A stretch of 39,692 bases of DNA. Source: a virus (Duplodnaviria; Caudoviricetes). Below are positions 6,517 through 32,185 of this stretch, one piece after another. The position numbers were made by a program, and so were the translations under genes. The notes beneath the pieces are model-generated. The model was not told the origin of the DNA and did no database searches. It saw only the letters and a list, made by a program, of their open reading frames with translations. The DNA lies in the IMG/VR virus record IMGVR_UViG_3300017705_000879, positions 1 through 39,692 of that record. One strand, 5' to 3'. Every line of letters begins with the position of its first letter. Within the stretch, counting starts at the first letter, position 1.

Positions 6517-7518
6517 ATGCCTTTAGACGTAACAGTTAGGAAATTTTATATTACTGCCTCCACAACAGCAGATGCTGATATGGAAGAAATCCATTTGGCG
6601 TTATATGATCATTTTAGCAATGTATCTACAAAATTTGGAATCTCATCAAGTGCCGGTGCTGGGTCTAACAATTTCACAGTAACTTGTTCAGCAGCAGGTG
6701 AAGATTGGCAGGTCAACTTCCGACGTGCCTCTTCAAGTACGACAACAACAAAATTTTCTATGTGTTCCGGCACGGGATCTCTCGGTGCAACAACTTTTGC
6801 AAGTCCCGGTACAACAGGGGCAGTCCCGGTAACGACCGGAAGGGATCACTCAAACGAAGTAGATTGGCAAATAAGCGCAGCAGCCGTAGCAAAGTCCTCT
6901 GGTGCAAATCAATACGACATCGAGGCAGTTATTGTTGAGATTGACGATGCCTTCTTCCTTCTCCTCGAAGACGATGGGACGCCATCTGGAACTTTCTACC
7001 CATACGGTGTTCACTTTGGAAAGGTCTGGGTTCCATTTTACGCAAGCGACCCAGGACTTGGAAGAGATGGTCTAGGATTTCACGTTGGCGTTCCAAGTGA
7101 CGCGGTTACAGCACCTAATGGGTGGCTCAATGATGATGCCAATACAAGCAATGACAACAGAATGCACGTTCTCGATGGTCAAGTGTCCGGCACAGTGGGG
7201 GGCATTACCCTCAATGATTGTGCCTTTCAACGTATTCAAAATCTCGCCGCACCGACTGATAGTACGGCAGATCTTGATGGGATCGAAAAACCAAGACCGT
7301 ATCTAAAACGTTCGTTGAACACCTCCAATCAGAGCTATAGAAATTTCGGATATAGCAAATATATGTTATTTTACAACTCTACCTCGAAAAGAACAGTGAA
7401 GAGTGCTCTTGCGAGTTCTGGGGGTGATATCTTTGTGTGTGTCGGTAGTGCAGCAACCACGAGCGACATACAAATCCCGTGGAGTGGATCATCAGGGGTT
7501 CCAATTCCAACACCATAA
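6517..7518 (+). CDS. Ser/Thr/Gly-rich putative virion protein (paralog 1)
   Basis: 333 aa; beta-rich composition; late-type motif upstream; homologous to the next ORF. Confidence 0.7.
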   Translation: MPLDVTVRKFYITASTTADADMEEIHLALYDHFSNVSTKFGISSSAGAGSNNFTVTCSAAGEDWQVNFRRASSSTTTTKFSMCSGTGSLGATTFASPGTTGAVPVTTGRDHSNEVDWQISAAAVAKSSGANQYDIEAVIVEIDDAFFLLLEDDGTPSGTFYPYGVHFGKVWVPFYASDPGLGRDGLGFHVGVPSDAVTAPNGWLNDDANTSNDNRMHVLDGQVSGTVGGITLNDCAFQRIQNLAAPTDSTADLDGIEKPRPYLKRSLNTSNQSYRNFGYSKYMLFYNSTSKRTVKSALASSGGDIFVCVGSAATTSDIQIPWSGSSGVPIPTP

Positions 7519-7533: not shown

Positions 7534-8535
7534 ATGAGTATTTCAAGCAACGCAGTAGTGACAAAAATAACAGTAACGGGATCTAATGCCGATGCGAATG
7601 AGATCTGTGAGTTTCTTTTTAGACACTTCCAGAATACCTCTACGAAGTTTGGTCTTTCTGGATCTGGTGCTGTCGTTGGTGATCACGCCTTTACGATTAC
7701 TTGTTCCGCTGCTGGTGAAGATTGGCAATGTAACTTCCGACGAAAAAACACAACAGAGGTTTATTTATCTGTTGCCTCTGGAACTGGTAGCCTTGGAAAA
7801 TCAGCAGATACTTTCTTTTTGACACCTGGTGCCGCCGCTGGTGCGGCTCCAACCCTATCCGGAACTGATACTTCTGGGGAAGTCCAGGCTATTGATCTCA
7901 GCCTCGTGACCATCCAAGATCCAACCGACGATTCCATTGATATGGTCGTGGTTGAGATGAATGACGCATTTTTTATTTTGTTCGAGGACGGAGCACAACC
8001 AACTGGATCTTATTATCCCTTTTCTTGTCACGCCGGGCGAGTAATGGTTCCGTTTTTTGAGACAGATAAGATCGGCGGCCCTGATGGTCTTGGCGTTATG
8101 GGAACGACCGAGGCGTCGATGATTAGCCCTAGTGCCAACAGTGCGAGAATCAAAGCATTTGTTACAGGTACTTATGATACAGGAACACCAGTAAACAATC
8201 AGGATAATGGCGGTTGGAAGTATTGCAACGCCTTCACCACTTACCAAACCAACAGTATGTATCTTCTTTCTGGATCGGCGGCACCGGAACCATATATTGT
8301 AAATCTGAGAGATGTTAATATCGCAAACTCTGAGTGTTTCGCCGGCTTTACAAAATACCTATTTCACCTCTGCGATGATACGGGCGCAGGGAGGATTGCG
8401 AAAACTGGGGTTTTCAATGGCCTAACTGGTGCTAATCAAGATTCAATGGTATTTATCGGGTACACCACCAGCGTGAGAGAAACCGTCATCCCTTGGACCA
8501 ATGATGGTGCGGGTACACTAGACCCACAACCATAA
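7534..8535 (+). CDS. Ser/Thr/Gly-rich putative virion protein (paralog 2)
   Basis: 333 aa; shares STKFG, TCSAAGEDWQxNFRR, SGTGSLG, DAFFxLxEDG, YP, VPF, DGLG and IPW with paralog 1. Confidence 0.7.
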   Translation: MSISSNAVVTKITVTGSNADANEICEFLFRHFQNTSTKFGLSGSGAVVGDHAFTITCSAAGEDWQCNFRRKNTTEVYLSVASGTGSLGKSADTFFLTPGAAAGAAPTLSGTDTSGEVQAIDLSLVTIQDPTDDSIDMVVVEMNDAFFILFEDGAQPTGSYYPFSCHAGRVMVPFFETDKIGGPDGLGVMGTTEASMISPSANSARIKAFVTGTYDTGTPVNNQDNGGWKYCNAFTTYQTNSMYLLSGSAAPEPYIVNLRDVNIANSECFAGFTKYLFHLCDDTGAGRIAKTGVFNGLTGANQDSMVFIGYTTSVRETVIPWTNDGAGTLDPQP

Positions 8536-8547
8536 GGAAACGATTTT

Positions 8548-10434
8548 ATGAAGATTATCGCAGTTTATCCTGGTCGTTTCCAGCCGATGGCAAAACATCA
8601 CGCCGAGACTTTTCGCTGGCTACAAGACAAATATGGAGTTGATAATACCTTTATTTTGACCTCTGGTAAAATTGATCCTCCGCGCTCTCCTTTCTCATTT
8701 GAAGAAAAGCAGAAAATCATCAATGCTCACGGCTTTAATAACGTTGTCCAGGTTCGCAGCCCCTACCGTCCGGTAGAACTTCTACAAGATTACGATGAGG
8801 AAGACACTGCTGTTATTTTTCTCCTCGGTGAAAAGGACGCAGAACGATTATCAAAAGGCAAATACTTTCAACCGCTAACTGGGGAACCAACTGAAACTTT
8901 TAAAGACCGGGGTTATGTTCTGGTTGCTCCTCACATTAGTATTCCCACATCCAACTTTACCGATCAGGGTGTATTTGACGAAGCAGAGATATTGAGCAAG
9001 GAAATGCTTGAGATTGATCCGACGCTTTCCTTCGAGGGTAAAAACATCAATCACAATCTTGCCGACTTCCTTGGAAGACTTGGGAGAACAAAAAGTAAGC
9101 CCGAATCTCGACAATCCAAATGGGCATCAAGGCTTCTAAGTAAATTTAATGTTGGAGAGGAAAAGAAGAGGTGGAACCAAATAAAGAGTTTTGACCCAGA
9201 GTATAATGCAGGACTTTTTCAGAGGGTAAATAAATTTTTAGATAGTTTGGAACTAAGTGGAACAGCAGCAAGGGGTATCCTAACAAAGAGCAGCAAAGAA
9301 GAGTTTGAAAACATTATGGGTTTTTGGGACGAGGATATTTATAATATGATTAAAGATAAACTAAAGGTAAAAAATCAAGTTTCTGAAACTATTTATAAAT
9401 TAGTTGAGGATGCTATTAACGAGATTAGCGCAGGGGGTGCAGGAGCGGTAGCGGGGGGTGCCGCTCCTCTTCGGAAAGAAGAGGAAGAGGAAGAAGAGGT
9501 CCAAGAAGAAGGGCGATCAACTTTTGATCCGGACCCAGGGGGAAACACAGGTGCTCGGCCAAATTTGAGTTATACTGGCCCTGATGTGGTTGCGGACAAT
9601 TTCAAAGAAGAAGAAGAAGAAGAAACGAAAAAGGAGTCTCTAAAAATGTCACTTAGTCGCGAAGAATTCATCTTAAGGGAATATGTGAGGCGATGCCTAC
9701 GCAAGATCCAGAAAGAGCAAATTAAACTTGCGAAGTCCGAGATTTTACAAGAAATTCGACTAAAGAAATACATCCGTAAAGTCCTTTTGGAAAAGGAAGT
9801 TCCCAACAAGTATACAACTACCGGGGGGAACCTCGCGGAGGCTCTATTCTTGGAGATCGCAAAGCCTGGTGGTGCTCTGGAAAATAAATATAAGAGCCTT
9901 CAAACAAACGAAGAACAAAGGAAGTCTTTTGCGGATTTTGTTATTGAGTTTGTACAAGCCGATTTCGATCTCGCTGAAGAATTTACAAGTAACATTCAAG
10001 ACGCAGAAATGGAAAGTGGAATGGTCCAGGGAGAGGAGACTCTTGAAGAAGAAGACATCAATATTACTGTCGGGGACGCAGAAGAAAAGAAAGCATTTCC
10101 CGATATTGAAGATATCGAAAAAGAACTCGCAGGTGGGGATGAGATTGAAGAAGAACCTGCCGATGGCGAAGAAGAAGATGTGCCCTCCGATTTATCACCA
10201 GACGGAGAGACTGGGTATGTCGCAGCTAAAGAAATATATGATGGGTTCTTAAGAAATCAAATTGACAAATTCTGGGAGCAATTGAAGAATGATAATGACC
10301 GAGGAATCTATAAAACAGCCGTCATTGAAAATTTAAACGCATATTTCCAAAAGTGGGAAAGTGAAGTCACTGAACCTGCTGGTATAGAGGCAGGAGAAGT
10401 CACACCAGGATTTACAGACGAACTAGAAATTTAA
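8548..10434 (+). CDS. HIGH-superfamily cytidylyl/nucleotidyltransferase-like domain fused to a long acidic region
   Basis: YPGRFQPMAKHH, SPFSFEEK, GEKDAER, LSGTAAR; Glu-rich C-terminal half. Confidence 0.75.
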   Translation: MKIIAVYPGRFQPMAKHHAETFRWLQDKYGVDNTFILTSGKIDPPRSPFSFEEKQKIINAHGFNNVVQVRSPYRPVELLQDYDEEDTAVIFLLGEKDAERLSKGKYFQPLTGEPTETFKDRGYVLVAPHISIPTSNFTDQGVFDEAEILSKEMLEIDPTLSFEGKNINHNLADFLGRLGRTKSKPESRQSKWASRLLSKFNVGEEKKRWNQIKSFDPEYNAGLFQRVNKFLDSLELSGTAARGILTKSSKEEFENIMGFWDEDIYNMIKDKLKVKNQVSETIYKLVEDAINEISAGGAGAVAGGAAPLRKEEEEEEEVQEEGRSTFDPDPGGNTGARPNLSYTGPDVVADNFKEEEEEETKKESLKMSLSREEFILREYVRRCLRKIQKEQIKLAKSEILQEIRLKKYIRKVLLEKEVPNKYTTTGGNLAEALFLEIAKPGGALENKYKSLQTNEEQRKSFADFVIEFVQADFDLAEEFTSNIQDAEMESGMVQGEETLEEEDINITVGDAEEKKAFPDIEDIEKELAGGDEIEEEPADGEEEDVPSDLSPDGETGYVAAKEIYDGFLRNQIDKFWEQLKNDNDRGIYKTAVIENLNAYFQKWESEVTEPAGIEAGEVTPGFTDELEI

Positions 10435-10451
10435 ATAGGGAGGAAAAGAAA

Positions 10452-10694
10452 ATGGCTAGTCCAAGAAGAAGAAGAATGAGAAAATTACAACGAGCGGGTG
10501 CCGCCAGTGCCCCCGTTGCTGCGCCGGCAGCAAAAGAAGCACCAGCTACTAAAGCAGTCGCTCCAAAAAAGAAAGCTGCTAAGAAAGCTGTAGTCGTTGA
10601 GGAAATTGCCGAAGAGCACAATGAGTGTGTTGATATCGAGTGCGAAGATAAGGAATGTCTAGATCACGCCGATGCAACTGAAGCTACCGAATAG
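10452..10694 (+). CDS. Small Arg/Ala/Lys-rich protein (histone H1-like segment) with acidic Cys tail
   Basis: SPRRRRMRK and APKKKAAKKA segments; strong GGGAGG SD. Confidence 0.65.
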   Translation: MASPRRRRMRKLQRAGAASAPVAAPAAKEAPATKAVAPKKKAAKKAVVVEEIAEEHNECVDIECEDKECLDHADATEATE

Positions 10695-10696
10695 AG

Positions 10697-11065
10697 ATGG
10701 TCTGGGCTAAAAAGAAAAGAACTCATATTGGTAAAAATCATTATTACTCTACCTGCAATAAGTTAAGAAAAGAAGGTAGATTAAATGATGAGTTTGAAAT
10801 AATGATGTCTGATCTTACATTAGAGGAGATTATCGCCGTAAAATTGGAACTTGCTGCAAAGTCTGCCAAACAGCCTTTGTATGGAGTTCCAATTTGGTTT
10901 TCACTCTATAGTATAGTCCAAGATGCTGTCTTAAAGTACGCATTCTCTGCGACGAGAACGAAAAGAGAGGCAATGAGGTTTTTAGGATTAAGTCCTAAAT
11001 ATTATAATGATCTTCAGGCAAAATTTAAGCCAGATTTATATTTTGAGCAGAAAGGGGGTGAATAG
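10697..11065 (+). CDS. Fis-like helix-turn-helix DNA-binding protein
   Basis: LYSIVQDAVLKYAFSATRTKREAMRFLGLS resembles the Fis/NtrC/TyrR HTH. The last 12 nt overlap the tmRNA. Confidence 0.6.
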   Translation: MVWAKKKRTHIGKNHYYSTCNKLRKEGRLNDEFEIMMSDLTLEEIIAVKLELAAKSAKQPLYGVPIWFSLYSIVQDAVLKYAFSATRTKREAMRFLGLSPKYYNDLQAKFKPDLYFEQKGGE

Positions 11066-11391
11066 GGAATCGACACGATAAGGCGTATTAATAGTGCAGG
11101 TGGATAACGGTAACGAATATCTTAAAAAATGTTACATTTTGTAAATGCAAATAACAATGCAAACTCTTACGCTCTAGCAGCGTAAGTGGGGTTTTCCTAA
11201 TAACCTTAATACCCAACATTAGGCTTAAATAAAATCGGTATCCCGTTAGAATAAAATGGGTGGATTCTGACTCCGATAAGAAAGGTTGGTTAAATCGGTA
11301 AATTTTGTTATTTTAGAAAAAATAAATAAACCTGTGAATGACTTTTGATATATATTATTAGTGGACGGGGGTTCGACTCCCCCCACCTCCA
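11054..11391 (+). ncRNA. ssrA: tmRNA (one-piece, 338 nt, CCA not encoded)
   Basis: Acceptor stem GGGGGTG/CACCTCC with G3-U and discriminator A; T-arm GGGGG-TTCGACT-CCCCC; helix 2 GCAGG/CCTGT; pseudoknot 1 GGATA/TATCT and GTAAC/GTTAC; tag reading frame present. Confidence 0.97.
11147..11185 (+). other. tmRNA tag reading frame ANNNANSYALAA*
   Basis: Resume codon GCA after TAAAT; ends YALAA-TAA. Confidence 0.95.
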
Positions 11392-11454
11392 TAAACAAAT
11401 CTGATCTCCTTCATTTTGTAATACTATATACTATAGATGCAGGAGGGCCAGACA

Positions 11455-11769
11455 ATGAAAATCTTTCTAGAAGTTACAAAATCATTCTGGCAACAACTCG
11501 CAGAAGAATCTCTAAAAAGGGTTGTTGCTACTTTGATTGCCGAGGGTGTTAAAGGTGGAGTTGAGGTACATAAAGAAATTTATAAAAGTAGGCAAATAAG
11601 AAAAGAACATGAATTGATCAAACAAGATGAAGCCTTAAAAGAATTTAGAAAAGACGCTTTAAAAAAAGTATGCAAAGAAGAATCAAAGCCAAAGGCTGCG
11701 GTGAAAACAAGCACGGACGCGAAGCCCTGTAAATGTAATTGCAAGTGTGGAAAAAGTGAAAATAGTTGA
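11455..11769 (+). CDS. Hypothetical protein with C-terminal Cys cluster
   Basis: ATG 11455 after GGAGGG; CKCNCKC at the end. Confidence 0.65.
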   Translation: MKIFLEVTKSFWQQLAEESLKRVVATLIAEGVKGGVEVHKEIYKSRQIRKEHELIKQDEALKEFRKDALKKVCKEESKPKAAVKTSTDAKPCKCNCKCGKSENS

Positions 11770-11947
11770 CATTTTGAGAAAAATTTACTCGGACGGGACA
11801 TTGATGTTCTTTTGTTTTATTTTGAACTTTATTGGCTTTGCCCTTACATATAGATTGGATCTTGTAGAAAAATCGTTTCACTACTTAGGTATGTCTGCAT
11901 TTTGTATAATAACTGCGGCCATCCAACTTAAAAGCTTCAGGAGATAA
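11747..11947 (+). CDS. Small two-TM membrane protein
   Basis: Two hydrophobic segments; fills the gap between neighbours; start uncertain. Confidence 0.5.
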   Translation: MEKVKIVDILRKIYSDGTLMFFCFILNFIGFALTYRLDLVEKSFHYLGMSAFCIITAAIQLKSFRR

Positions 11948-11950
11948 ATA

Positions 11951-12611
11951 ATGCCAACTACATTTACGGGAAGACAAATTCGGGATGAAACTATCACAGT
12001 AGATGATATTGGAGAGGAAGCAGAGGAACAATTTTCCAAAGTAAAGATTTCCTCTGGAGATACGACGACTGATTATTTATCAAGCAAAGTCACTGCCGGA
12101 ACTGGTATTTCTATTAACGTAAACAATTCTGGATCTTATGAGACTATTACTATTGAGAACACAGATTCCTCCGGTGGGCAAATATTTGGCTCAGAATTCT
12201 ACCACACTCAAAGCCTTGGAGCTACAACTATTGAGGATGATGAATTTAATAATAAAATAAGCGGCTCCACCCCATCAGTACCTGCTGGCACTTATCGCCT
12301 TGGTTGGTCATATAATTGGAATAATAATCAAAAGGGTAAAAGTTTTTACTCGCGAATCTTGGTAGATGGAACAAGTATTGGAAATCAAAATGCAACCACT
12401 CTTCAAATGGAGCGAACAAAATACGATTCTGGGGGTTTCATACCCTGATGGTTCCTCTTCTAGTGTTAGGCAAGCTTTTTTGTCTTCCGGATTTGAATAT
12501 TTAACATTTGAAAGTAGTGGATCTCATAGCATTCAATTACAAGTGTGTCACGAGACTGGTAAAAAGGTAACAATTTGGAATGCTAAAGTAGAATTATGGA
12601 GGGTGTCTTGA
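11951..12611 (+). CDS. Tail-fibre/receptor-binding-like protein split by a +1 frameshift (165 aa short form, about 219 aa joined)
   Basis: Frame 0 ends ...GGFIP at CCC-TGA (12443-12448). The +1 frame continues DGSSSSVRQAFLSSGFEYLTF...IWNAKVELWRVS, completing an apparent beta-sandwich. AGGAG SD at the start; none for the +1 ORF. Confidence 0.7.
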
Positions 12612-17809: not shown

Positions 17810-19066
17810 ATGGATAAAAAGATTACTGTTCTTACTTTAGGGGACCATCCACTGTCCCCTACTGGCGTTGGAACACAAACAAAATATATGATTGAGTCAC
17901 TTTTGAAGACTGGGAAGTTTAAGGTGATTAGTTTGGCAGGTGCCATCAAACATCAAAGTTACCAACCAATCCAGACAGAAGAGTATGGCGATCTTTGGAC
18001 TTTGTTCCCGGTGGACGGATTTGGCGACGAGGGGACAATCAGATCCCTCTTGAGAAACCACAAACCAGATATTCTTTGGTTTATGACTGATCCACGTTTC
18101 TATGGTTGGCTTTGGAATATGGCAAATGAGGTTCGTTGCCATATTCCTATGATTTATTATCACGTTTGGGACAATAAACCATACCCAACTTTCAATCGAC
18201 CCTCATATGAATCAACAGACGTGATTGCAACAATCTCAAAGGTTACGGCAGATATTGTTAAGAATGTTGCCCCCGGTGTGGAGCATCACTATGTTCCTCA
18301 TTCTGTAAACCCTAAATTCTTTAAACCTTTCGACGAGGGACAGATTAAGAATTTTAGAAAAGAATATTTTGAGGGAGAAGAGGATAAATTTATTGTTTTC
18401 TGGAATAATCGCAACGCCCGCCGTAAGCAACCAGGAACTTTGATTCATTCTTTCAAGCAATTTTTGGATCGGGTCGGCCACGACAAAGCAAAACTTCTTA
18501 TGCATACGAATCCAAAAGACGAAAATGGTCCGGATCTCGAAGCACAGATTAGTGCCCTCGGTCTTACTGATGGTCAAGTAGCATTTAGTACTGGTAAATA
18601 CCCACCAGACCAGATGGCAATTTTCTATAACCTTTGTGACTGTACAATTAACATCTCAGATGCTGAAGGCTTTGGTCTTGGTACTTTGGAATCTCTGGCT
18701 TGCAAGACCCCAATCATTGTCAATATGACTGGTGGCCTTCAAGAGCAAGTTACAGATGGAGAGAAGTTTTTTGGCGTTGGAATTGAACCAGCCGCAAAAG
18801 CAGTCATTGGGTCACAATCTGTGCCATTTATTTATGAAGATCGGGTTGCTGAGAGTGATGTAGTAGATGCTCTAGTTAAGCTCTATGAAATGACACCTGA
18901 ACAACGGAAAGAACTCGGAAATCAAGGCTATGAACACGTACAAGAGAACTATAGTTTCGAAAATTTTGAAAAACAATGGGTAGATTTAATGCTTTCTGTC
19001 CACGAAAACTATGGTTCTTGGGAGAATAGAAAGAATTACCAATCTTGGGATTTAACGGAGTTATAA
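17810..19066 (+). CDS. Glycosyltransferase family 4 (GT-B)
   Basis: PTGVGT, NRNARRKQP, EGFGLGTLESLACKTPII. Confidence 0.9.
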   Translation: MDKKITVLTLGDHPLSPTGVGTQTKYMIESLLKTGKFKVISLAGAIKHQSYQPIQTEEYGDLWTLFPVDGFGDEGTIRSLLRNHKPDILWFMTDPRFYGWLWNMANEVRCHIPMIYYHVWDNKPYPTFNRPSYESTDVIATISKVTADIVKNVAPGVEHHYVPHSVNPKFFKPFDEGQIKNFRKEYFEGEEDKFIVFWNNRNARRKQPGTLIHSFKQFLDRVGHDKAKLLMHTNPKDENGPDLEAQISALGLTDGQVAFSTGKYPPDQMAIFYNLCDCTINISDAEGFGLGTLESLACKTPIIVNMTGGLQEQVTDGEKFFGVGIEPAAKAVIGSQSVPFIYEDRVAESDVVDALVKLYEMTPEQRKELGNQGYEHVQENYSFENFEKQWVDLMLSVHENYGSWENRKNYQSWDLTEL

Positions 19067-20355
19067 TGAAAAAAAGTGTATTAGTTTCAGGTCCAGTATT
19101 ATCGTGTTCGGGGTACGGAGAGCAAGCAAGGTTTGCTCTCCGTTCTTTGAGGACAAGAGAAGATATTTTTGACATTTATGTTAACCCTCTTACTTGGGGT
19201 AAGACATCTTGGATCACAGAAAGTAATGAGGAGAGAGATTGGATTGACAATCTCATTCGGAAGACTCATCAAAGACAACAAGCGATGTCCAATGTTCCGT
19301 ATGATATTTCAATTCAGGTAACGATCCCCCCGGAGTTCAATAAACTTGCTCACGTCAACATTGGCTATACAGCAGGGATTGAAACCACAAAGGTTGCTCC
19401 GGCTTGGATCGAGAAGGCAAATATGATGGATAAGATTATTGTACCTTCAACTCATTCCAAAAACACTTTTACCTCCACTGTCTATCAGTTATTCAATCAA
19501 CAGACAGAGCAACACGTTGGAGATCTCCAGACTCGGACAGAGTTTGAGGTCATCCCATTTCCACTGAGAACATTGGAACCAGAAGATATTAGCATTGATT
19601 TTGAAACTAAGTTCAATTTCCTCACAGTTTCCCAAATAAGCCCACGTAAGAATCTAGAAACGCTTGTTAGGAACTTTGTGAAGGAGTTTAGGGAAGACGG
19701 CGACGTTGGCCTCATTGTCAAAGCAAGTATCGCAAATAACTCAATTTATGACAGGTATAACACTACCGTCGCACTGAAGAAGTTACTTGCAGCACCTGAA
19801 ATGGCAGAACGAAAGTGCAAGGTCTATCTCCTTCACGGAGACTTGTCGGAGGGACAGCTTGCAACCCTCTATCGACACCCAAAGGTTAAGGGTTACGTGA
19901 CATCTACACACGGAGAAGGCTTTGGACTTCCAATCTTTGAATCTGCTATTGCTGGTCTTCCTGTTGTTGCTACTGATTGGTCTTCGTACCTTGATTTTAT
20001 GACGATGCCAGTCAAAAATAAAAAGGGCAAAGTGAAGGACAAAAAGATGTTTTTGAAAGTCCAATGCGACATCAAACAAATTCAACAACACGCAGTTTGG
20101 GATGGCGTCCTACAGGCAGATTCAGAGTGGGCTTTCGTAAGTGAAAACTCATTGAGGGAAAAAATGAGGACTCTGCGTAAGAACCCTGGAACTTATCGTA
20201 AGAACGCAAAAATGATCCAAGAGCATATCCTTGAGAACTACAAGCCGGAAGATTTGTATGCCAAGTTTGTAAATACAATTAGCTCCGAAGAGACGATTTC
20301 TCTTGGGGAAAATACTGTCGATGATTTATTCAAGTCCCTTGAAGAAGGTGGATAA
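19066..20355 (+). CDS. Glycosyltransferase family 4 (GT-B)
   Basis: SGYG, PRKN, GEGFGLPIFESAIAGLPV; TAATG overlap. Confidence 0.9.
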   Translation: MKKSVLVSGPVLSCSGYGEQARFALRSLRTREDIFDIYVNPLTWGKTSWITESNEERDWIDNLIRKTHQRQQAMSNVPYDISIQVTIPPEFNKLAHVNIGYTAGIETTKVAPAWIEKANMMDKIIVPSTHSKNTFTSTVYQLFNQQTEQHVGDLQTRTEFEVIPFPLRTLEPEDISIDFETKFNFLTVSQISPRKNLETLVRNFVKEFREDGDVGLIVKASIANNSIYDRYNTTVALKKLLAAPEMAERKCKVYLLHGDLSEGQLATLYRHPKVKGYVTSTHGEGFGLPIFESAIAGLPVVATDWSSYLDFMTMPVKNKKGKVKDKKMFLKVQCDIKQIQQHAVWDGVLQADSEWAFVSENSLREKMRTLRKNPGTYRKNAKMIQEHILENYKPEDLYAKFVNTISSEETISLGENTVDDLFKSLEEGG

Positions 20356-21977
20356 TGATTATCTTCGTCTCGGATATGTTCGCAGACCAATATGGGGGAG
20401 GAGCCGAATTGACCACCGAGGCAATCATTGAGGCTTCTCTCCTTCCTGCCTTTAAAGTCAATTCTAAAGACCTCGATCTAAAAACAGTTAAGGCGCATAG
20501 AGATAAATTTTGGGTGTTTGGTAATTTCACCGGAGTTTCAAAAGAACTCCTTATTTATTTTGCCCAGAATATGAAGTACTCTGTCCTTGAATATGACTAT
20601 AAGTTCTGCAAACTCAGGTCTATTGAAAAACATATTGCTCATTCCGGCACTTGTGATTGTCAAATGTCTGATCACGGAAAGACAATTTCTATTTTTTTGG
20701 CAAAGGCAAGCCACCTTTGGTTTATGTCAACTGGCCAACGAGAGTTATATTGTGAAAAGTATTCATTTTTGAATAAGAAAAATTCAAAAGTTCTGAGTTC
20801 TGTTTTCAGCCCCCAGACGCTCGACAAAATTGAGTCGCTAGATTGCAACAATAAGAACGACGTGTGGCTCATTCAAAATTCTCCGTCCTGGATCAAGGGC
20901 ACCGAAGATGCAATCGCATTTGCAAAAGCAAATAACTTCAAATATGAACTGTTTGAGGATTTGACTTATGATCAGATGCTGGAAAAGTTTGCCCAATCGA
21001 AGGGCTTTTTGACTTTCCCCCGAGGACACGACACCTGTCCAAGGACTTCTATTGAGGCCAAACTGCTTGGTTGTGAAGTCATCTGCAATGAATATGTGCA
21101 GCACCGAGATGAGCCCTGGTTCACTGGGACTAACGAAGAGTCGATGGAATATTTGAGGGGAAGGACACGGCACTTCTGGGATGAAACTCTTGCTGCCCTC
21201 GATGACATTTTACCGACTAAGAACTCAAAATCGTCTGAGGACACACATTTTAAAATTGTAATTCCCGTCTACAATGCAGAAGACTGGATCGGGAGAGCAA
21301 TTCGATCCGTCAAAGATCAGGACTACCAGAACTTTCAATGCATCATCACAAATGATATTTCCACAGACTCCACCCTCCAGAAGTGCCTAGATGCAGTTGG
21401 AGGCGACCCAAGATTCAAGGTTATCGACAATACAGAGAAAAAATACGCCCTACGAAACATATACGAGTCAATCGAAGAGAGCAGTCCAAATCCAGAGGAT
21501 GTTATTGTATCTCTTGATGGTGATGATTGGTTCCCAACTCACTTCGTCCTGTCAAAGTTAAATGAAGTTTATAAAAATGAAGATTGTTTGATGACATACG
21601 GCAGTTTTGTGCAGTTTCCACACGGAACCATCGGTCGAGAAGCAAGTAGATACCCGGAAGATGTCATTAGGGATGGATCTTACAGGAAAGATAAATGGCG
21701 AGCATCTCATTTAAAAACTTTTAAAAGTGTGCTGTGGAATGAAGTTAACGTTGAGGATTTGAGGGACAATGACGGAGAGTTCTATGAGATGACTTATGAC
21801 CAGGCTATGATGCTCCCAATGTTGGAGATGTGTGGAGAAAGGGCAAAATACATTCCTCAAGTTATGTACGTCTACAATGTTTCAAACCCCAACGCAGTTA
21901 ACAAGACACGCGCCAAAAAGCAACATAATCTGATGTTAAAGATTAGAAATAAAGCACCGTACAAGAGGCAGTTTTAA
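20355..21977 (+). CDS. Bifunctional glycosyltransferase (GT-B-like N-terminus plus GT2 C-terminus)
   Basis: N-terminus GGAE, KG, DTCPRTSIEAKLLGC; C-terminus IVIPVYNAE, NDISTD, LDGDD. Confidence 0.85.
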   Translation: MIIFVSDMFADQYGGGAELTTEAIIEASLLPAFKVNSKDLDLKTVKAHRDKFWVFGNFTGVSKELLIYFAQNMKYSVLEYDYKFCKLRSIEKHIAHSGTCDCQMSDHGKTISIFLAKASHLWFMSTGQRELYCEKYSFLNKKNSKVLSSVFSPQTLDKIESLDCNNKNDVWLIQNSPSWIKGTEDAIAFAKANNFKYELFEDLTYDQMLEKFAQSKGFLTFPRGHDTCPRTSIEAKLLGCEVICNEYVQHRDEPWFTGTNEESMEYLRGRTRHFWDETLAALDDILPTKNSKSSEDTHFKIVIPVYNAEDWIGRAIRSVKDQDYQNFQCIITNDISTDSTLQKCLDAVGGDPRFKVIDNTEKKYALRNIYESIEESSPNPEDVIVSLDGDDWFPTHFVLSKLNEVYKNEDCLMTYGSFVQFPHGTIGREASRYPEDVIRDGSYRKDKWRASHLKTFKSVLWNEVNVEDLRDNDGEFYEMTYDQAMMLPMLEMCGERAKYIPQVMYVYNVSNPNAVNKTRAKKQHNLMLKIRNKAPYKRQF

Positions 21978-22873
21978 TGAAAGTACATTTTGATAATGTT
22001 AACCTTGGGAGCAGCAGTGGTCCCAATTCTTTTGCCAGTAAGCTTGTCACACAATTTAAGAAAAGGGGCGTCGGAATTACTCCCCTTTCTGAGGCAGACA
22101 TCAGCCTGTGCTTTATTGAATCTAAGAATTTTAACTTGAATAAGCCAAGAATCCAGAGACTGGATGGAATCTATTTTAATACAGATTTTGACTATAATAA
22201 ACAAAATGTCAATATCAAGAAGGTTTATGATGATTCTGATGGGGTAGTTTTTCAATCGCGTTTCAATCAGGAACTTATAACAAGATACTTCGGAGAACCA
22301 AGACGGTATCAAGTTATTCATAATGGGGCGGATATTGAAGCAATTGAAGAGGCACCTAGAATTATAAACAATAAATATGAAAATATCTGGTGTTGTGCCG
22401 CCTCTTGGCGTCCGCACAAGCGTCTAAATGAAAACATTAGATACTTCTTGGAGCATTCTGGCCATAAAGATGCATTGTTCATTGCTGGGAACGTCCCAGA
22501 GCAAGAAAAGGTTCAAGATTCTAAAATTATTTATATGGGCAATGTCGCACAGCGACACCTGTATAGTCTTTATAAGGTATCAAGATATTTTGTTCACCTG
22601 GCGTGGCTAGATCACTGCCCGAATGTTGTTGTTGATGCCCGAGCAAGTGGATGTCAAATTGTATGTTCCAGCGCTGGTGGCACAGTCGAAATCGCAGGCG
22701 AAGATGCCATTGTTATAGATGAGGAGGAGTGGGATTTCAAACCAGTAAAGTTATATGAACCTCCGCGTCTAAATTTTGAAAAAAAGCTTAATAATTCTTT
22801 ACATACAGATTATAATATGGATAGTGTTGCTGATAAGTATGAAAACTTTTTGAAATCAACCCTTAATTCATAA
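21977..22873 (+). CDS. Glycosyltransferase family 4 (GT-B)
   Basis: VIHNG, RPHKR, DHCPNVVVDARASGC, GGTVE. Confidence 0.85.
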   Translation: MKVHFDNVNLGSSSGPNSFASKLVTQFKKRGVGITPLSEADISLCFIESKNFNLNKPRIQRLDGIYFNTDFDYNKQNVNIKKVYDDSDGVVFQSRFNQELITRYFGEPRRYQVIHNGADIEAIEEAPRIINNKYENIWCCAASWRPHKRLNENIRYFLEHSGHKDALFIAGNVPEQEKVQDSKIIYMGNVAQRHLYSLYKVSRYFVHLAWLDHCPNVVVDARASGCQIVCSSAGGTVEIAGEDAIVIDEEEWDFKPVKLYEPPRLNFEKKLNNSLHTDYNMDSVADKYENFLKSTLNS

Positions 22874-22879
22874 TAAAAA

Positions 22880-23704
22880 ATGCCTGCAATAGTGAGAAAA
22901 ATATTTGAAGAATATGTCCGAGAGCGTTTCGGTCTAGAGGAATGCATCGCAGTGAACAATGGCACAAGTGCCTTAATTGCCCCACTGTGGTCTATGGATT
23001 TGAAACCGGGCGATGAAGTCATTACGACACCATTTACTTTCATTGCAACTACAAACGCCATTTTAATTGCAGGTGCAACACCTGTTTTTGTTGATATTGA
23101 CCCTGAAACTTTTCTTATTGATCCGGATAAGATCGAGGCCGCTATCACGCCGCAAACAAGGGCCATTATCCCAGTCCATCTGTATGGTAGAGTTTGTAAA
23201 ATGGATAAAATCAAGGCGATTGCAAGAAAACACTCACTTATTGTTATTGAGGATACTGCTCAAGCGTTCGGCGCAGAATACGACTCTCATAAAAAATCTC
23301 GTTACGTCAAATATGCTGGTATGGCGTCTGATTGTGGCGCGTTCTCATTTTATAAAACAAAAAATATTTCTACTTTTGAAGGCGGGATGATTTGTATCCC
23401 CCCAGGATCTAAACTCGATGCATTTAAAATTCGATCAATTTGCGATCAAGGGCAGGTCGGTAAATATAATCACGAATATGTAGGGTTTAATTTTAGACTA
23501 GCAGAGCCACTTTGCCTCTTAGCCCTGGAGCAAATGAAGCTTCATATGACCGGCGTTAAAGCAGAGCTTGGCCTAAGAGGGCCAGCCCAGGGCCATTATC
23601 CTAAAGTGGTCTACCAGCAGCCAGCATATATAAAGCGTGGAATTACTGGAAATTGCCCAATTGCTGAAGAGATTGCTGACAAGGTATTCAATAAGTGTTT
23701 TTAA
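22880..23704 (+). CDS. DegT/DnrJ/EryC1/StrS sugar aminotransferase (shortened)
   Basis: NNGTSAL, TFIAT, PVHLYG, EDTAQA, SFYKTKN (PLP lysine), EGG. Confidence 0.9.
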   Translation: MPAIVRKIFEEYVRERFGLEECIAVNNGTSALIAPLWSMDLKPGDEVITTPFTFIATTNAILIAGATPVFVDIDPETFLIDPDKIEAAITPQTRAIIPVHLYGRVCKMDKIKAIARKHSLIVIEDTAQAFGAEYDSHKKSRYVKYAGMASDCGAFSFYKTKNISTFEGGMICIPPGSKLDAFKIRSICDQGQVGKYNHEYVGFNFRLAEPLCLLALEQMKLHMTGVKAELGLRGPAQGHYPKVVYQQPAYIKRGITGNCPIAEEIADKVFNKCF

Positions 23705-23717
23705 TAGGAAAGAGGAT

Positions 23718-24668
23718 ATGAAAAAGTTTTTGGTAACAGGAGGAGCCGGATTTATAGGCTCTCACTTGTGTGAGAGGTTATTAAGTGACGGACATAATGT
23801 CATTTGTTTGGATAACTTTTATAATGGAAATTTAAATAATATTCGAGGGCTATTCAACCACCAGAACTTCTACTTTGTAGAGGGGGATATTTTAGATAAA
23901 AGTTTACTAAAGGAATTAACCAGGGATTGCGATTATATTATGCACCTCGCTGGCCAAATTCACGTTGAAAAGTCTATAATAAGACCAGCAGAAACTTTAG
24001 AAATTAACTTACAGGGAACAAAAAACTTATTAGATATCTGCACTGAGAATAAAAATATAGGTATGACCTTTGCTTCTTCGGCTGAAGTTTATGGAGAAAA
24101 ACAAGGCAAACATTCTGAAGAGTCTCCATTAAACCCTCAATCGCCATATGCAGCATCAAAAGTTGCAGCCGAGTCCCTTTGTATTTCCTATTTCCACACA
24201 TATAAAACAAATGTGAGAGTAATAAGAAACTTTAATACATTTGGTCCGCGACAAAAATCTTATGGTTATGGCTCTGTTATTGCCATTTTTGCACGAAGGG
24301 CGTTAAATAATAAGTCTTTAGTGGTGTATGGGGACGGAGAACAGACTAGAGATTATCAATATATAGACGATGCAGTTAACGGATACGTTGCTTCACTCAA
24401 GATGCCAGCGGGAGAGGTAGTAAATACTGGATATGGCCAGGACCATAAGATAATTGATATTGCTAAAAAGATCATTGAAATAGTTGGGTCTACTTCTAAG
24501 ATTGTTCATACAGATCCTAGACCAGGTGAGGTCAAGAAACTAAATTGCTCAATTGAAAAGGCTGCTTCATTTGGTCATACACCAGAATTTTCTCTTTCCG
24601 ATGGCTTAAGAAAGTACATAGATTGGCTCATTGAGTTTGAACCTGACGGCCTTGGAGATATGAAGTGA
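23718..24668 (+). CDS. NAD-dependent nucleotide-sugar epimerase/dehydratase
   Basis: GGAGFIG, SSAEVYG, YAASK, RNFNTFGP, GDGEQTRD. Confidence 0.92.
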   Translation: MKKFLVTGGAGFIGSHLCERLLSDGHNVICLDNFYNGNLNNIRGLFNHQNFYFVEGDILDKSLLKELTRDCDYIMHLAGQIHVEKSIIRPAETLEINLQGTKNLLDICTENKNIGMTFASSAEVYGEKQGKHSEESPLNPQSPYAASKVAAESLCISYFHTYKTNVRVIRNFNTFGPRQKSYGYGSVIAIFARRALNNKSLVVYGDGEQTRDYQYIDDAVNGYVASLKMPAGEVVNTGYGQDHKIIDIAKKIIEIVGSTSKIVHTDPRPGEVKKLNCSIEKAASFGHTPEFSLSDGLRKYIDWLIEFEPDGLGDMK

Positions 24669-25567
24669 GCAATCAGCACAATGGATGTATAAATATTCTT
24701 TCTAGTAGAACAAAGTGTTTGCCTCACTGTATTAAATCGCTTTGGGATAAGTGGAATTTTAGGTACAATTATCCTATTTTTGTTCATTATTTTGATGACA
24801 TTTATGATGATGAGGATTTGAGGCAAGAAATTATAGATTTTACAAAATCGGACATCCGATTTATTTCTATTCCATATGAAACACCCAAGCATATCCCAGA
24901 AGAAGAACTGTTCTACAATAGAAGAGATTTGTGGTATGTGGGCAGCGGAAGGTTCGGGAAAAATAGGAAAGGGTACCTGCATATGTGCCATTTTTATAAC
25001 AATCTATATGAATACCCAGGTACAGAGTTTGATAAGTATGATTACATTTTAAGCGTAGATGATGAATCTTTGTTTTTAAAAGAGGTTCCTTACGACTTTT
25101 TTGAAGTTATGTCTAAGAAGGATAGCATAGCTGGCGCAATTAAACTTACCGACCCCAAGGTCAAACCATTGCACCAGGGCGTATTTGATACTAGGGTCGG
25201 AATATTAGATTTTGTTAAGGGCTATATTGAAAAATATGATGTAGAGATTAAATCAGAGTTTATTGGTAAGTTATTCACGGAGGGGGAAGACTATTTTCAT
25301 CAAAATTTGATTGTAGCCGACTCCTGGATATTTAAAACAGAAATGTTCAAAACTCCAGAATGGAAGCAGTGGACTATGGAATTAAATAATAATGGCGGCG
25401 TCTATAAAGGTAGGTGGGGAGACACAGAGATGAATGTCTTATTTATGCTCACACATTACGGATACCTGCCTTATGATTTTAAAACTGTTGATGAAGGGTA
25501 TCATGATCAGGGCGGCTTAAGACATATTCAGAATTATGCCCCATCGATCAAAGATTTTGAGAAGTGA
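24665..25567 (+). CDS. GT15 (Kre2/Mnt1 alpha-1,2-mannosyltransferase)-like glycosyltransferase
   Basis: NFRYNYP, GYLHMCHF, YDYILSVDDE, YDFF and GGVYKGRWGD mirror Kre2-family YRHMCRF and GGF-YERWGD motifs. Confidence 0.72.
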   Translation: MSNQHNGCINILSSRTKCLPHCIKSLWDKWNFRYNYPIFVHYFDDIYDDEDLRQEIIDFTKSDIRFISIPYETPKHIPEEELFYNRRDLWYVGSGRFGKNRKGYLHMCHFYNNLYEYPGTEFDKYDYILSVDDESLFLKEVPYDFFEVMSKKDSIAGAIKLTDPKVKPLHQGVFDTRVGILDFVKGYIEKYDVEIKSEFIGKLFTEGEDYFHQNLIVADSWIFKTEMFKTPEWKQWTMELNNNGGVYKGRWGDTEMNVLFMLTHYGYLPYDFKTVDEGYHDQGGLRHIQNYAPSIKDFEK

Positions 25568-25571
25568 TGTT

Positions 25572-26528
25572 ATGAATATTCTTTATGTTGATCAAGCAAA
25601 CCGCCTCGCAGAATCCTATATGTATCCATACTATGGAGCAGTTTATAGAGAGTTAAAGATGATGGAGGATGTATATTTTTTTGGCGGTGGTGTGGGGGAC
25701 ATTAACAGTCTTTTATCAAAATATGAAGTTTCTTTTGATTGTATTGTTTTCGGCTTGGGATATTTCGCCCAAGGAAATCCGGGTGCCTGGCAAAAGATAA
25801 ACGGACTTGCAGAATTGGAAATCCCCACAGTGGCATTTCTGCACAAACCACAATCAATGTTAGAGGAAAAGCTCAACTTTTGCAAGATTAACAAAATAAA
25901 TATCTTGGCAGATCCTCATTGTACCCACGAAGAATTTGGACACAGAGTTGGTGCAAGATCTTTTAGGTCTTGGTTCACCGCCTCCCCAGAAGTTTTTTAC
26001 CCAAGAGAAGCTGAAAAAAAATATGATATTGGGTTTAGTGGTGCTCTTCACGGTAGTGGCAAAATTGAGGGGCCAACAAGGGATTTGAGAACCCGAATTC
26101 AAGCAATTTTAGAATCAAACAACTCTTACAATACTTTTTGGAATGGTAGTGATTCTGTCGCCACCAGGATTAAGGACGTTAGCGAATACTCAGCCAAGAT
26201 AAATGAATGTAAGGTGTGGTTATCCACAACTGGGCCTATGTTAGATATTGGCCCCAGATACTTTGAAGTTTTACTCTCAAAAACACTTTTATTTTGCAAC
26301 AATATGCCCTTACAATACGGAGGAACGTTTGTTGATGGAGAGAATTGTGTGATGTTCGAAAATGATTTGAGCAACTTTGAGGATAAGCTTAAATATTATT
26401 TACACAATGATAATGAGAGAGAGACAATTGCTGAACGCGGTTATAATATGGTAAAAGATAAATATACGTGGAAGCATATGGCCATACAAATGTTGGATGA
26501 GGTAAAGAAAGTTGGAAAAACTAAATGA
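25572..26528 (+). CDS. CgeB-like glycosyltransferase (Glyco_trans_1_2)
   Basis: FYP...YDIGFSG, PRYFEV, KYYLHNDNERETIAERGY...YTWKH. Confidence 0.8.
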   Translation: MNILYVDQANRLAESYMYPYYGAVYRELKMMEDVYFFGGGVGDINSLLSKYEVSFDCIVFGLGYFAQGNPGAWQKINGLAELEIPTVAFLHKPQSMLEEKLNFCKINKINILADPHCTHEEFGHRVGARSFRSWFTASPEVFYPREAEKKYDIGFSGALHGSGKIEGPTRDLRTRIQAILESNNSYNTFWNGSDSVATRIKDVSEYSAKINECKVWLSTTGPMLDIGPRYFEVLLSKTLLFCNNMPLQYGGTFVDGENCVMFENDLSNFEDKLKYYLHNDNERETIAERGYNMVKDKYTWKHMAIQMLDEVKKVGKTK

Positions 26529-27036
26529 TGTTTATATTTCTGATGGGTGTGAGATAAAAAGACCTCATTTGTGTAAATTTGGAAATCGTGTAGCTATAGA
26601 TAGGGGATTTTATTGCACAACCTCCTTGGAGGTTGGTGATTATGTTCATATTGGTCCATATGTTACTTGTATTGGAGGGGAAAAGGGCAAGTTTATTGTC
26701 GAGGGATTTAATAACATAATGGCTGGAGCAAGAATAGTTTGTGCCTCGGATCGATTTGATGGATCTGGATTATTTGGTGCTCTTATACCTGAAAGTTTAA
26801 AGGGTAAGCAGATTATTGAGCCCGTGGTGATGGAAAAATTTTCCAACATTGGGACAAACTCAATAATACTTCCTGGGTCAATTTTACGAAAGGGTGTGCT
26901 CCTGACAGCCGGAAGCCTTTTAATGGGAGACACAGAAGAATGGGGAGTGTACAAGGGGAACCCAGCAGTTCTTGTGAAGAAAATAGACCCTCGACAAATA
27001 TTGATTAATGCAGGTAAATTAGGATATGAAGAATAA
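26512..27036 (+). CDS. Left-handed beta-helix acyltransferase
   Basis: Hexapeptide repeats (VGDYVHIGP, IGTNSIILPG) and GNPA; TTG start. Confidence 0.85.
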   Translation: MEKLNDVYISDGCEIKRPHLCKFGNRVAIDRGFYCTTSLEVGDYVHIGPYVTCIGGEKGKFIVEGFNNIMAGARIVCASDRFDGSGLFGALIPESLKGKQIIEPVVMEKFSNIGTNSIILPGSILRKGVLLTAGSLLMGDTEEWGVYKGNPAVLVKKIDPRQILINAGKLGYEE

Positions 27037-27039
27037 CAT

Positions 27040-27447
27040 ATGAAAAGAATATATTCAAACATAGACCCATCAAAGTTAATTTTAACTGAGATAAGGAGAG
27101 CCGAGTTATCAGAGTATAGGGTAGATTTGAGCCCCGATGAAGAGTTCCTACAAGTGTCTGGCAGAAAGTTAAATAAAGATGTTAGAGCCCCCGCCCACAG
27201 ACATCTCCCGATAGATAGGAGCACTGACATTACACAGGAAGCCTGGATTGTTCTTAGTGGGCGCATCAAGGGGGTCTTTTATGACCTAAATAATGAGGTT
27301 TTATACGAAACAATCTTAAAATGTGGAGATTGTGTGGTATTATATAGGGGAGGTCATTCACTCGAAACCCTAGAGGAAGACACCTTATTTTATGAAATCA
27401 AGACAGGTCCATACTTCGGATTAGAGGCAGATAAGGAGAGCATATGA
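27040..27447 (+). CDS. Cupin-fold protein (WbuC-like)
   Basis: AHRH, QEAWIV, GGHS, YEIKTGPY. Confidence 0.75.
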   Translation: MKRIYSNIDPSKLILTEIRRAELSEYRVDLSPDEEFLQVSGRKLNKDVRAPAHRHLPIDRSTDITQEAWIVLSGRIKGVFYDLNNEVLYETILKCGDCVVLYRGGHSLETLEEDTLFYEIKTGPYFGLEADKESI

Positions 27448-28610
27448 TGGATAAGATTATAGATTTGGGAATGCATCCTTATGCGGACACTTTTATAGCA
27501 GAGAATCAATTGGGCCTTTCTGAACCTGTCTACCCCCTCCAGTGCTGGATGGATAGGGAAACTGGAGAGATAAGTTTAAAATATAAGTCAGACTCAAATG
27601 AGAGGTATAATTTATATGACTATTCTTACACTTCTTCAAATTCAAAATTTTCTAGAGGACATTGGGATAAATATGCAAAACATACTTCTGAAAAAATAAA
27701 TCTAAAACCAAATGCTAATATGGTTGAGATCGGGTCAAACGATGGATACCTAGCAGAGCAATTTCAGAAGGCAGGTCATAAAGTCCTGGGTGTAGATCCG
27801 TCAAAATGTATGGTGGATTTGGCTAAGTCGCGAGGAGTGGACACTTATTGTGGTTTATTTGGTGAAGCAACTAGTAATGAAATTAAAGAGAAGTGTGGGT
27901 TGGTAGATTGCATTGTTGCCAATAATGTTTTTAACCACGCTGATGACCCGTTGGATTTTGCCAAGGGTGTTGAAAATTTGTTGTGCGAAGACGGCGTGTT
28001 CATATTTGAAGTTCCATACTGGTATAACACCATTGTCGATGGCCGATTTGACCAAATTTATCACGAACATATAAGCTATTTTACTGTTAAATATTCCTGT
28101 AATCTGCTTGAGAGGGCCGGACTTACTGTTTTTGATGTTGAGGTGGTGGACTACCATGGTGGTTCTATTAGGGTATATTCTAAGAAGAGCCCACAGAATA
28201 TTTCTGAAAATGTTAACAATCTCATCCAAAAGGAGATTGAAGCACGACTATTCGAGGTTGAACTATATTCTGATTTTGTAAAAGAAATTAAAAACAAAAG
28301 ATCCTTATTTATGGAGAAATTATATTCCATAACAAGAGAGGGCAAGCCAATCGTTGGCATTGGAGCCGCCGCTAAAGCAAATACTTTTCTTAACTTTTAT
28401 AATATAGACAGCACAGTTATGGACTATATTACGGATGCATCCGAGCATAAAATCGGAAAATATACGCCCCTAACAAGAATACCAATCTTAGATGATGAAA
28501 CTGTATTTAAAAAATATGAAGAGGTATATGCAGTAATCTTGTCCTGGAACATATCAGACATCTTAAAAGAAAAGTTGAGAGAAATAAATAACAATATTGT
28601 ATTTTTGTAA
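27444..28610 (+). CDS. NDP-hexose C-methyltransferase family (SAM-dependent)
   Basis: DLGMHP, EIGSNDG, NVFNH, FDQIYHEHISYF, HGGSIR, GAAAKANT, KIGKYTP, LSWN. Confidence 0.9.
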   Translation: MMDKIIDLGMHPYADTFIAENQLGLSEPVYPLQCWMDRETGEISLKYKSDSNERYNLYDYSYTSSNSKFSRGHWDKYAKHTSEKINLKPNANMVEIGSNDGYLAEQFQKAGHKVLGVDPSKCMVDLAKSRGVDTYCGLFGEATSNEIKEKCGLVDCIVANNVFNHADDPLDFAKGVENLLCEDGVFIFEVPYWYNTIVDGRFDQIYHEHISYFTVKYSCNLLERAGLTVFDVEVVDYHGGSIRVYSKKSPQNISENVNNLIQKEIEARLFEVELYSDFVKEIKNKRSLFMEKLYSITREGKPIVGIGAAAKANTFLNFYNIDSTVMDYITDASEHKIGKYTPLTRIPILDDETVFKKYEEVYAVILSWNISDILKEKLREINNNIVFL

Positions 28611-28627
28611 ATTTTAGGAGAAATATT

Positions 28628-29035
28628 TTGAAAAAGAGAAATATGTGGAAGAATGACGGAGAACTATTAGAGTTGCACGTTGATGACCGAGGCTCTATTG
28701 TTGATTTATTCTATGATGAAAACATTAATCATGTCGCTACGGTTGTTTCCAAGCCTAATGCAATTAGGGGCAATCACTATCATAAAGAAACCACGCAACA
28801 TATGCTTATGACAAAGGGCTCGTTGGAGTATTGGTATAAGCCGGTAGATTCAAATGAGGATGCAAGGATGGTGCTCGCTGAAGTGGGCGATATAGTCTCC
28901 ACAGAACCTTATGAGATCCATGCACTAAGGATCGGACCAGAGGGGAATGAATTTATAGTATTTTCACACGGAAAGCGCGGAGGAAAAGATTATGAATCTG
29001 ATACCTTCCGCGTCGAAAACATCATAGGTGAATAA
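28628..29035 (+). CDS. Cupin-fold sugar isomerase/epimerase-like (FdtA/RmlC-like)
   Basis: DDRG, RGNHYH, PYEIHA; AGGAG SD. Confidence 0.75.
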   Translation: MKKRNMWKNDGELLELHVDDRGSIVDLFYDENINHVATVVSKPNAIRGNHYHKETTQHMLMTKGSLEYWYKPVDSNEDARMVLAEVGDIVSTEPYEIHALRIGPEGNEFIVFSHGKRGGKDYESDTFRVENIIGE

Positions 29036-29037
29036 GG

Positions 29038-29631: not shown

Positions 29632-29644
29632 ATTGGAGGATCAG

Positions 29645-31314: not shown

Positions 31315-31331
31315 GCAGGAGTATAAAATAA

Positions 31332-32171: not shown

Positions 32172-32185
32172 GTGTAAAATACTTT

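Follow-up and report, generated by a model that had tools for sequence, protein, structure and literature searches.

What becomes of a protein whose stop codon lies inside the tmRNA gene that follows it? The question is raised by an uncultured phage known from a virus record of 39,692 bases (the window, by which we mean the whole stretch of DNA analysed), in which a short gene for a Fis-like helix-turn-helix (HTH) protein ends within a one-piece tmRNA gene on the same strand. The 5' end of a tmRNA is made by RNase P, and tags ending in ALAA send the proteins that carry them to ClpXP/ClpAP. From these elements the original prediction drew a self-tagging circuit, in which each maturation of a common transcript leaves a non-stop mRNA for the regulator, whose product is then tagged and degraded. 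The features at the junction are as follows.

10697 to 11065, plus strand: gene for the Fis-like HTH protein of 122 aa, ending YFEQKGGE*, with codons 120-122 and the stop within the tmRNA
11051 to 11053, plus strand: AAA codon of Lys119, flush with G1 of the tmRNA and predicted 3' end of the cut mRNA, from a presumed cut site
11054 to 11065, plus strand: 12-nt overlap GGG GGT GAA TAG, whose stop at 11063-11065 is nucleotides 10-12 of the tmRNA
11054 to 11391, plus strand: one-piece tmRNA gene (ARAGORN; Rfam RF00023) with G3.U70 acceptor stem and T-arm, CCA not encoded
11147 to 11185, plus strand: tag reading frame ANNNANSYALAA* (ARAGORN, coding part 94-132)

The junction between the two genes

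The junction reads AAA/GGG GGT GAA TAG, and the first base of codon 120 is G1 of the tmRNA, at 11054 [(11054-10697)/3 = 119]. The geometry that had been claimed, with codon 120 starting at G1, the stop inside the tmRNA and no spacer, is exact to the base, and it follows from this geometry that a cut by RNase P at G1 removes the stop. A real coding sequence on the same strand, with its stop 3' of the mature 5' end of the tmRNA, is an overlap as Hudson et al. define it. In the window's clade, taken as the three clusters at 90% that lie closest to the window protein, every one of the 22 proteins carries a tail encoded by tmRNA, which reads GGE, GGD or GDE and stops there or 4-5 residues on, and the overlap persists in all 22 although the junction changes by codon lengths. 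A run of A followed by a run of G marks the junction as a place where a sequencing or assembly error could have deleted the true stop, but such an error is practically out of the question because the identical protein is present on 3 contigs from several sources, the clade shares the tail throughout and the overlap is visible in the DNA of a relative that is 87% identical (L092).

The tmRNA gene

Rfam model RF00023 is covered whole (1-374) by the tmRNA, with a score of 106.7 bits against a cut-off of 47. The acceptor stem, GGGGGUG/CACCUCC with G3.U70, resembles that of tRNA-Ala; the discriminator is A, the T-arm carries a GGTTCGA loop, and the tag frame ends in a hydrophobic degron of the AA type. 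From these features the tmRNA looks intact, and its alanylation and SmpB-dependent tagging are predicted. The minimum-energy fold of leader and tmRNA did not recover the acceptor stem and is therefore uninformative on competition for folding. A hairpin 3' of the tmRNA (11405-11446) was no better than shuffled sequences (z -1.15).

Complete ssrA genes carried by large phages, as here, are known from mycobacteriophages and phage G (PMC4131195) and from Melnitz, in which, unlike the window, the tmRNA is described as two-piece (PMC9004378). In a search of phage records for cultured relatives, the window tmRNA was matched only over 29-30 nt of the T-arm, in 4 records. Among the related loci, the distance from the tmRNA 5' end to the 3' acceptor is 468-479 nt in L028, L029, L035, L062, L066 and L084 and 241-243 nt in L027 and L022; this apparent difference of about twofold could reflect inserted sequence, duplication of the 3' end or mis-pairing of an end.

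The Fis-like protein

The protein has 236 near homologues and 526 representatives at 50% identity. The window protein itself was matched by no model in Pfam, PHROG or NCBIfam and does not reach the curated cut-offs of the Fis profiles (PF02954 HTH_8 and PRK00430); among 33 homologues, HTH_8 was matched by three (best E 0.05) and PRK00430 by one (E 0.07). The evidence for a relation to Fis came instead from an AlphaFold model (pLDDT 75.6). Its two best fold matches among 48,161 chains were Fis of Pseudomonas aeruginosa (6m10; Z 6.6, rmsd 3.8, 79 residues aligned) and of Escherichia coli (1etk; Z 6.5, rmsd 3.8, 74 aligned), followed by NtrC-type domains (Z 5.0-5.2), and Z values below 8 can reflect a common arrangement. 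Foldseek with the same model gave no match at E 0.001, and a PDB sequence search with the Fis-like alignment returned only a designed repeat. The nearest named Atlas clusters were HTH_8 and NinH (0.83 and 0.82), and NinH of phage lambda is a known phage mimic of Fis (PMC7166090).

The predicted helices over residues 30-113 thus align best with Fis, whereas the identity is 12-13% and the window protein is set apart by a basic extension at its N-terminus, which adds a helix. By resemblance of fold it would work like a Fis-type DNA-binding protein, so that the name Fis-like, taken over from the original prediction, is a fair description and not a statement of family membership. No rescue factor was among the fold matches listed, which point to a Fis-type DNA-binding domain. 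The aligned fold and the HTH end near residue 113, and the tail beyond the last YF motif varies freely. Bacterial Fis activates the promoters of stable RNAs, and the Fis-like protein may regulate the tmRNA/tRNA cluster.

Operon context

Upstream of the Fis-like gene, three features bear on how it is transcribed.

8548 to 10434, plus strand: gene of 628 aa with an N-terminal cytidyltransferase-like part, its C-terminal half similar, on inspection by eye, to the gene that precedes the Fis-like gene in several relatives
9388 to 9396, plus strand: strand-biased motif ACTATTTAT, candidate phage late promoter 1.3 kb upstream
10452 to 10694, plus strand: Lys/Ala-rich gene of 80 aa, separated by 2 nt from the start of the Fis-like gene, likely in the same operon and with a counterpart in L092

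The genes of 628 and 80 aa and the Fis-like gene are spaced 17 and 2 nt apart, the plus strand holds no terminator-like site in 8000-12600, and the promoter scan gave no match near G1. As had been predicted, then, there is no terminator between the Fis-like gene and the tmRNA, and it is on spacing, terminators and promoters that a single transcript for both is likely. Of the junctions between called ORFs on the plus strand of the window, 17 of 50 overlap. The motif ACTA[AT]TTA, a candidate for the late promoter of this phage family, occurs four times on the plus strand of the window and never on the minus strand, and a similar motif stands upstream in 64 of 129 relatives. Its copies in the window are at 5709, 6488, 9388 and 39302, two of them just 5' of genes (5746 and 6517).

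Overlap among relatives of the Fis-like gene

The sample of 171 related loci and the window was reduced to 150 distinct loci by collapsing duplicates. A downstream tmRNA 5' end could be located by pattern in 101; there was none within reach in 27, and 22 were too short. The Fis-like gene overlaps the tmRNA in 6 of the 101, abuts it (0-9 nt) in 6, ends 37-54 nt before it in 12 and lies farther off in 77. A Fis-like gene and then a tmRNA is the common order, and overlap is a minority state within it. Among distant representatives, 127 were scored (23 of 150 were dropped as not anchorable or cut short), with 2 clear tails of the tmRNA type and 3 doubtful ones. Conservation, which the original prediction had proposed to check, was borne out within the window's clade and fails in the wider family, where most homologues stop before the tmRNA, an outcome named at the time as telling against the circuit. 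Family-wide conservation of the overlap is rejected on these counts (6/101 loci, 2-5/127 representatives) and on the four separate places of the overlap on the tree. These are the window clade, L012/P0004, L049 and L007/L010, all in frame 0, on a protein-core tree of 132 rows and 105 columns (the 22 short loci dropped) that has many poorly supported forks and no root, so that gain and loss of the overlap are indistinguishable.

The state is a labile one. On a tmRNA tree of 110 rows it changes 12 times, and the AAA of Lys119 stands in register with the TAA or TAG of abutting relatives (L026, L031 and L094), so that a single substitution switches between the two states. Since relatives pass freely from one layout to the other, the overlap is likely a tolerated product of tight packing. 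The tails of 137 Fis-like genes hold a sigma70-like promoter in 66 cases, the start of the next gene in 5 and a tmRNA in 6. The tails with a promoter-like site (for example in L004, L006, L021 and L099) often lie ahead of a tmRNA/tRNA cluster. As a bacterial control, 6 of 51 ARAGORN-confirmed tmRNAs were overlapped by an ORF-only rule, but these were GC-rich and looked spurious, and the figure was discarded.

Other genes 5' of the tmRNA

The place in front of the tmRNA is also taken by genes unrelated to the Fis-like gene, of which two kinds recur.

L412-L491 (for example L488, about 1500-1710; L210, 930-1133, minus strand): family-B loci
L024:2906-3055, L051:2844-3008, L105:1962-2108, with L115, L136, L155 and others: Flp/Fap pilin-like genes

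Family B, a gene of 68 aa that is absent from the window, is in almost every one of its loci the gene next to the tmRNA on the 5' side. The 59 scored of 64 distinct loci comprise 50 overlaps, 7 genes ending 0-15 nt before G1 and 2 farther away, among them L474 (gap 216), a mis-picked start that counts as an overlap in the tree test. In the 5 loci whose G1 was not located by pattern, ARAGORN places one overlap, two genes at 4-10 nt and one at 672 nt, and finds no tmRNA in one. The overlaps fall in frame 1 in 33 cases, frame 2 in 9 and frame 0 in 8. The protein is Lys-rich and has 685 homologues; its model (pLDDT 90.7) shows two strands, a helix and three strands, for which neither Foldseek (best E 0.08) nor VIA (best Z 4.5) gave a clear match. 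Pfam gave no match, and the Atlas gave only unnamed viral clusters. Divergent copies occur elsewhere, one of them flush with a tRNA-Arg (L024). In a further locus a DUF2061 membrane-protein gene (L001:2582-2776) extends into the tmRNA by 24 codons; the window, too, has a DUF2061-like start, at 33977.

The pilin-like genes behave differently. In 19 distinct loci such a gene separates the Fis-like gene from the tmRNA and stops 0-15 nt short of G1, without a single overlap among the 19 (counted by eye). All 6 that were searched match PF04964, one of them above the cut-off, and their products possibly serve in receptor masking. The tRNA genes of the same phages offer a second contrast: of 52 that follow an ORF, 13 within 15 nt are abutted and 2 overlapped, one of these by a doubtful ORF. 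Overlap is therefore not wholly random across genes, as far as can be read from rows that are related by descent and from gene families that differ. The smpB-like gene of a Saccharibacteria locus (L340) stops 9 nt short of ssrA.

A stop codon kept inside the tmRNA

In a set of 136 distinct tmRNAs, the frames entered by an upstream Fis-like or family-B gene were compared with the others. All 55 overlapped frames stop within 49 nt of G1, so none extends beyond nt 50; of 353 other frames, 213 stop by then and 140 read on. A TGA at nt 6-8 (frame 1) is found in 27 of 29 overlaps, as against 39 of 107 other tmRNAs and 0 of 7 abutting family-B loci. In a tree-aware test of frame 1, nine supported pairs gave 5.2 for and 0.0 against, with a median p of 0.06, which is not significant; frames 0 and 2 gave p 1, and the family-B tree held only 1 usable pair. 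An A at position -2 of the leader is equally frequent in overlapping or abutting loci (53/65) and in the others (59/71). That the frame being read keeps an early stop inside the tmRNA suggests that ribosomes reach this stop and hence that translation runs to its normal end on the precursor before it is cut. An early in-frame stop in a tmRNA may then serve as a hint, at the level of sequence, of translation of the precursor before cutting.

A proposed order: translation first, cutting later

The reading that we favor, with somewhat better than even confidence, is that the precursor is translated first and cut later, and that RNase P then retires the mRNA via trans-translation, as a by-product of packing. 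A single transcript would carry both the Fis-like gene and the tmRNA, and on it the acceptor stem, from the structure of tmRNA, would have to wait for its 3' strand about 330 nt downstream. The first ribosomes would thus terminate before a cleavable substrate exists; stopping at nt 10-12, they would release the full-length protein of 122 aa. Host RNase P, by its known action, would next cut after 11053 and leave a non-stop mRNA, trailing ribosomes would stall and add a tag ending in YALAA, and both protein and mRNA would be degraded. The yield per transcript would thereby be capped, rather than switched on or off. A cut mRNA with a flush stop, its 3' end unprotected, would be lost almost as fast through 3' exonucleolytic decay. 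It would fare much alike, and abutting and overlapping states could therefore swap while the stop stays close inside the tmRNA.

The labile state, the free space in the tail, the overlap of unrelated genes with the same RNA and the kept stop all speak for translation before cutting as a by-product. Against it stand the retention of the overlap throughout the window's clade and the tRNA and pilin junctions, which overlap rarely or never. A possible promoter inside the gene also weighs against it, favoring a separate transcript for the tmRNA.

10979 to 11008, plus strand: candidate weak internal promoter with TATAAT at 11003-11008, a -35 of TTTTTA and an 18-nt spacer (9/12), absent from the promoter-scan list

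The original prediction had pointed to this TATAAT as a possible separate source of tmRNA. The hexamer is where it was said to be, but the promoter around it is poor, its -35 matching at only 3 of 6 positions. If the site, perhaps activated by the phage, made most of the tmRNA, the long translated transcript would seldom be processed and little non-stop mRNA would arise. Of the 6 overlap loci, 3 (window/L092 and L007, two lineages) have an exact TATAAT at this codon pair, compared with none of 137 other loci, in a post hoc test that dropped 7 rows without the FLG anchor. L012, from a third overlap lineage, has TTGACA-17-TATATT (11/12) inside its read-through tail, and the frequency of promoter-like sites in Fis-like tails points the same way. 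However, the TATAAT is missing in L010, in L049 and in 8 of 22 clade proteins, which have YS instead of YN, and TAT AAT may merely encode Tyr-Asn of the recognition helix. Among family-B overlaps, such a site accompanies 1 of 49. Promoter-like sites that score 10/12 or better and lie no more than 90 nt from G1 are found in 2 of 55 overlapping, 0 of 10 abutting and 22 of 71 other loci, so overlapped tmRNAs mostly do without a strong promoter of their own; with no terminator between the genes, long transcripts contain the tmRNA anyway. We hold separate supply to be doubtful, if still worth some weight.

Further-reaching is the idea that in this uncultured T4-type phage family the seat 5' of the tmRNA is itself regulated. 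Its occupant, Fis-like or B, would have repeatedly lost its own stop; maturation by RNase P would time out the mRNA and the phage tmRNA destroy late copies, as a self-limiting timer or sensor of host RNA processing and rescue, with family B perhaps a dedicated partner of the tmRNA. We rate this as unlikely.

The selected circuit of the original prediction, in which the regulator is destroyed as long as RNase P and trans-translation function and builds up once they become limiting, as an arfA-like sensor, fares a little worse and strikes us as distinctly improbable. In its favor, two gene families have lost the stop repeatedly and by several routes, the window's group has the overlap clade-wide, and genes of these phages overlap a tmRNA more often than a tRNA. 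An untagged product of 119 aa could work, because it would include the HTH, which ends near residue 113, and the rate would be set by the activity of the host, since five complete relatives (see below) lack genes for SmpB and RNase P RNA. As a conserved and selected circuit, however, it is not supported: overlap is rare in the family at large, abutting and overlapping sisters are interspersed on the trees, and the stop inside the tmRNA is always kept. No link of the protein to ribosome rescue was found, and the counterpart in Carsonella is reported in only half of the strains (PMC4131195).

Coupling in the reverse direction, with ribosomes terminating at nt 10-12 holding open the 5' strand of the acceptor stem and delaying maturation, so that tmRNA is released when translation slows or stalls, is very unlikely. 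The geometry of the overlap would allow it, the stops fall no farther than 50 nt in, always short of the tag frame at about nt 85-94, and family B almost always has the tmRNA as its immediate neighbor. Yet a ribosome that stops at an abutting codon would already cover G1, so that overlap is unneeded, and overlap alone already locks two genes together.

Relation to known systems

The concept of feedback through a non-stop mRNA is already published, for Carsonella ruddii, in which smpB runs into ssrA (Hudson, Lau & Williams, 2014; PMC4131195). According to that paper, which credits Mao et al. (2009), the overlap occurs in half of the Carsonella strains, with a tail of apparently random sequence, and 250 overlaps with an upstream coding sequence were counted among 115,660 bacterial t(m)RNA genes (PMC4131195). 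The Carsonella locus as described there is like the present one in that an upstream gene on the same strand ends in the tmRNA, a non-stop mRNA is predicted and the distribution among relatives is patchy. It differs in that the present case is from a phage and concerns a Fis-like gene, where the Carsonella gene is smpB, the partner of tmRNA. Against the bacterial survey, as summarized by its authors, overlap is far more frequent here, where two to three unrelated gene families within a single phage group show it. In E. coli, arfA mRNA is cut by RNase III to a non-stop form whose product is tagged and degraded via trans-translation (PMC3985003). Both systems have an endonuclease cut before the stop, tested in arfA and predicted here. 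The product of arfA is the back-up rescue factor; here it is a Fis-like protein, the predicted enzyme is RNase P and the cut is part of making the tmRNA. Most relatives of the window gene, moreover, are without the layout, and a non-stop design of the arfA type is conserved only inside the window's clade.

In the literature searched, which covered few subscription journals, we found no phage case of a gene that ends inside a tmRNA, in line with the original prediction. New here are the family-wide recurrence, the family-B gene and the pattern of kept stops. Hudson et al. (2014) predicted non-stop mRNAs from genes ending in tRNA or tmRNA from few cases, none of them tested in what that source presents (PMC4131195). 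The phage family supplies dozens of natural variants of one junction, with overlaps in each frame, flush stops and promoter-spaced genes, and the prediction is therefore testable with matched natural alleles in a laboratory strain. If the circuit were true, the level of a phage regulator would read out host RNase P and ribosome-rescue activity, and phage tmRNAs would have a specific target.

The phage group and the rest of the window

Five complete relatives (G001-G005; L492, L493), reached via the related loci, are 184-206 kb long, and all five carry a T4-type gp23 capsid gene of 620-642 aa. The gp23 match is split in two parts in the complete relatives, which suggests an inserted domain. Neither an SmpB gene nor a type A RNase P RNA gene was found in any of the five, and tagging by the tmRNA would need host SmpB. 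A tblastn search with the Fis-like protein found nothing among 50,697 phage records, and no cultured relative came to light. The host search, with nhmmer against 120 genome loci, gave only weak and mixed matches; ANDN-type tags like those of the relatives occur in two Myxococcota loci, but in other loci too.

Two further regions of the window may be mentioned. From 17810 to 34216 there is a long run of tightly packed genes whose N-termini look like those of glycosyltransferase or sugar-nucleotide genes. At 6517-7518 and 7534-8535, two adjacent genes of 333 aa that look like paralogs stand behind a late-type motif and probably encode virion proteins.
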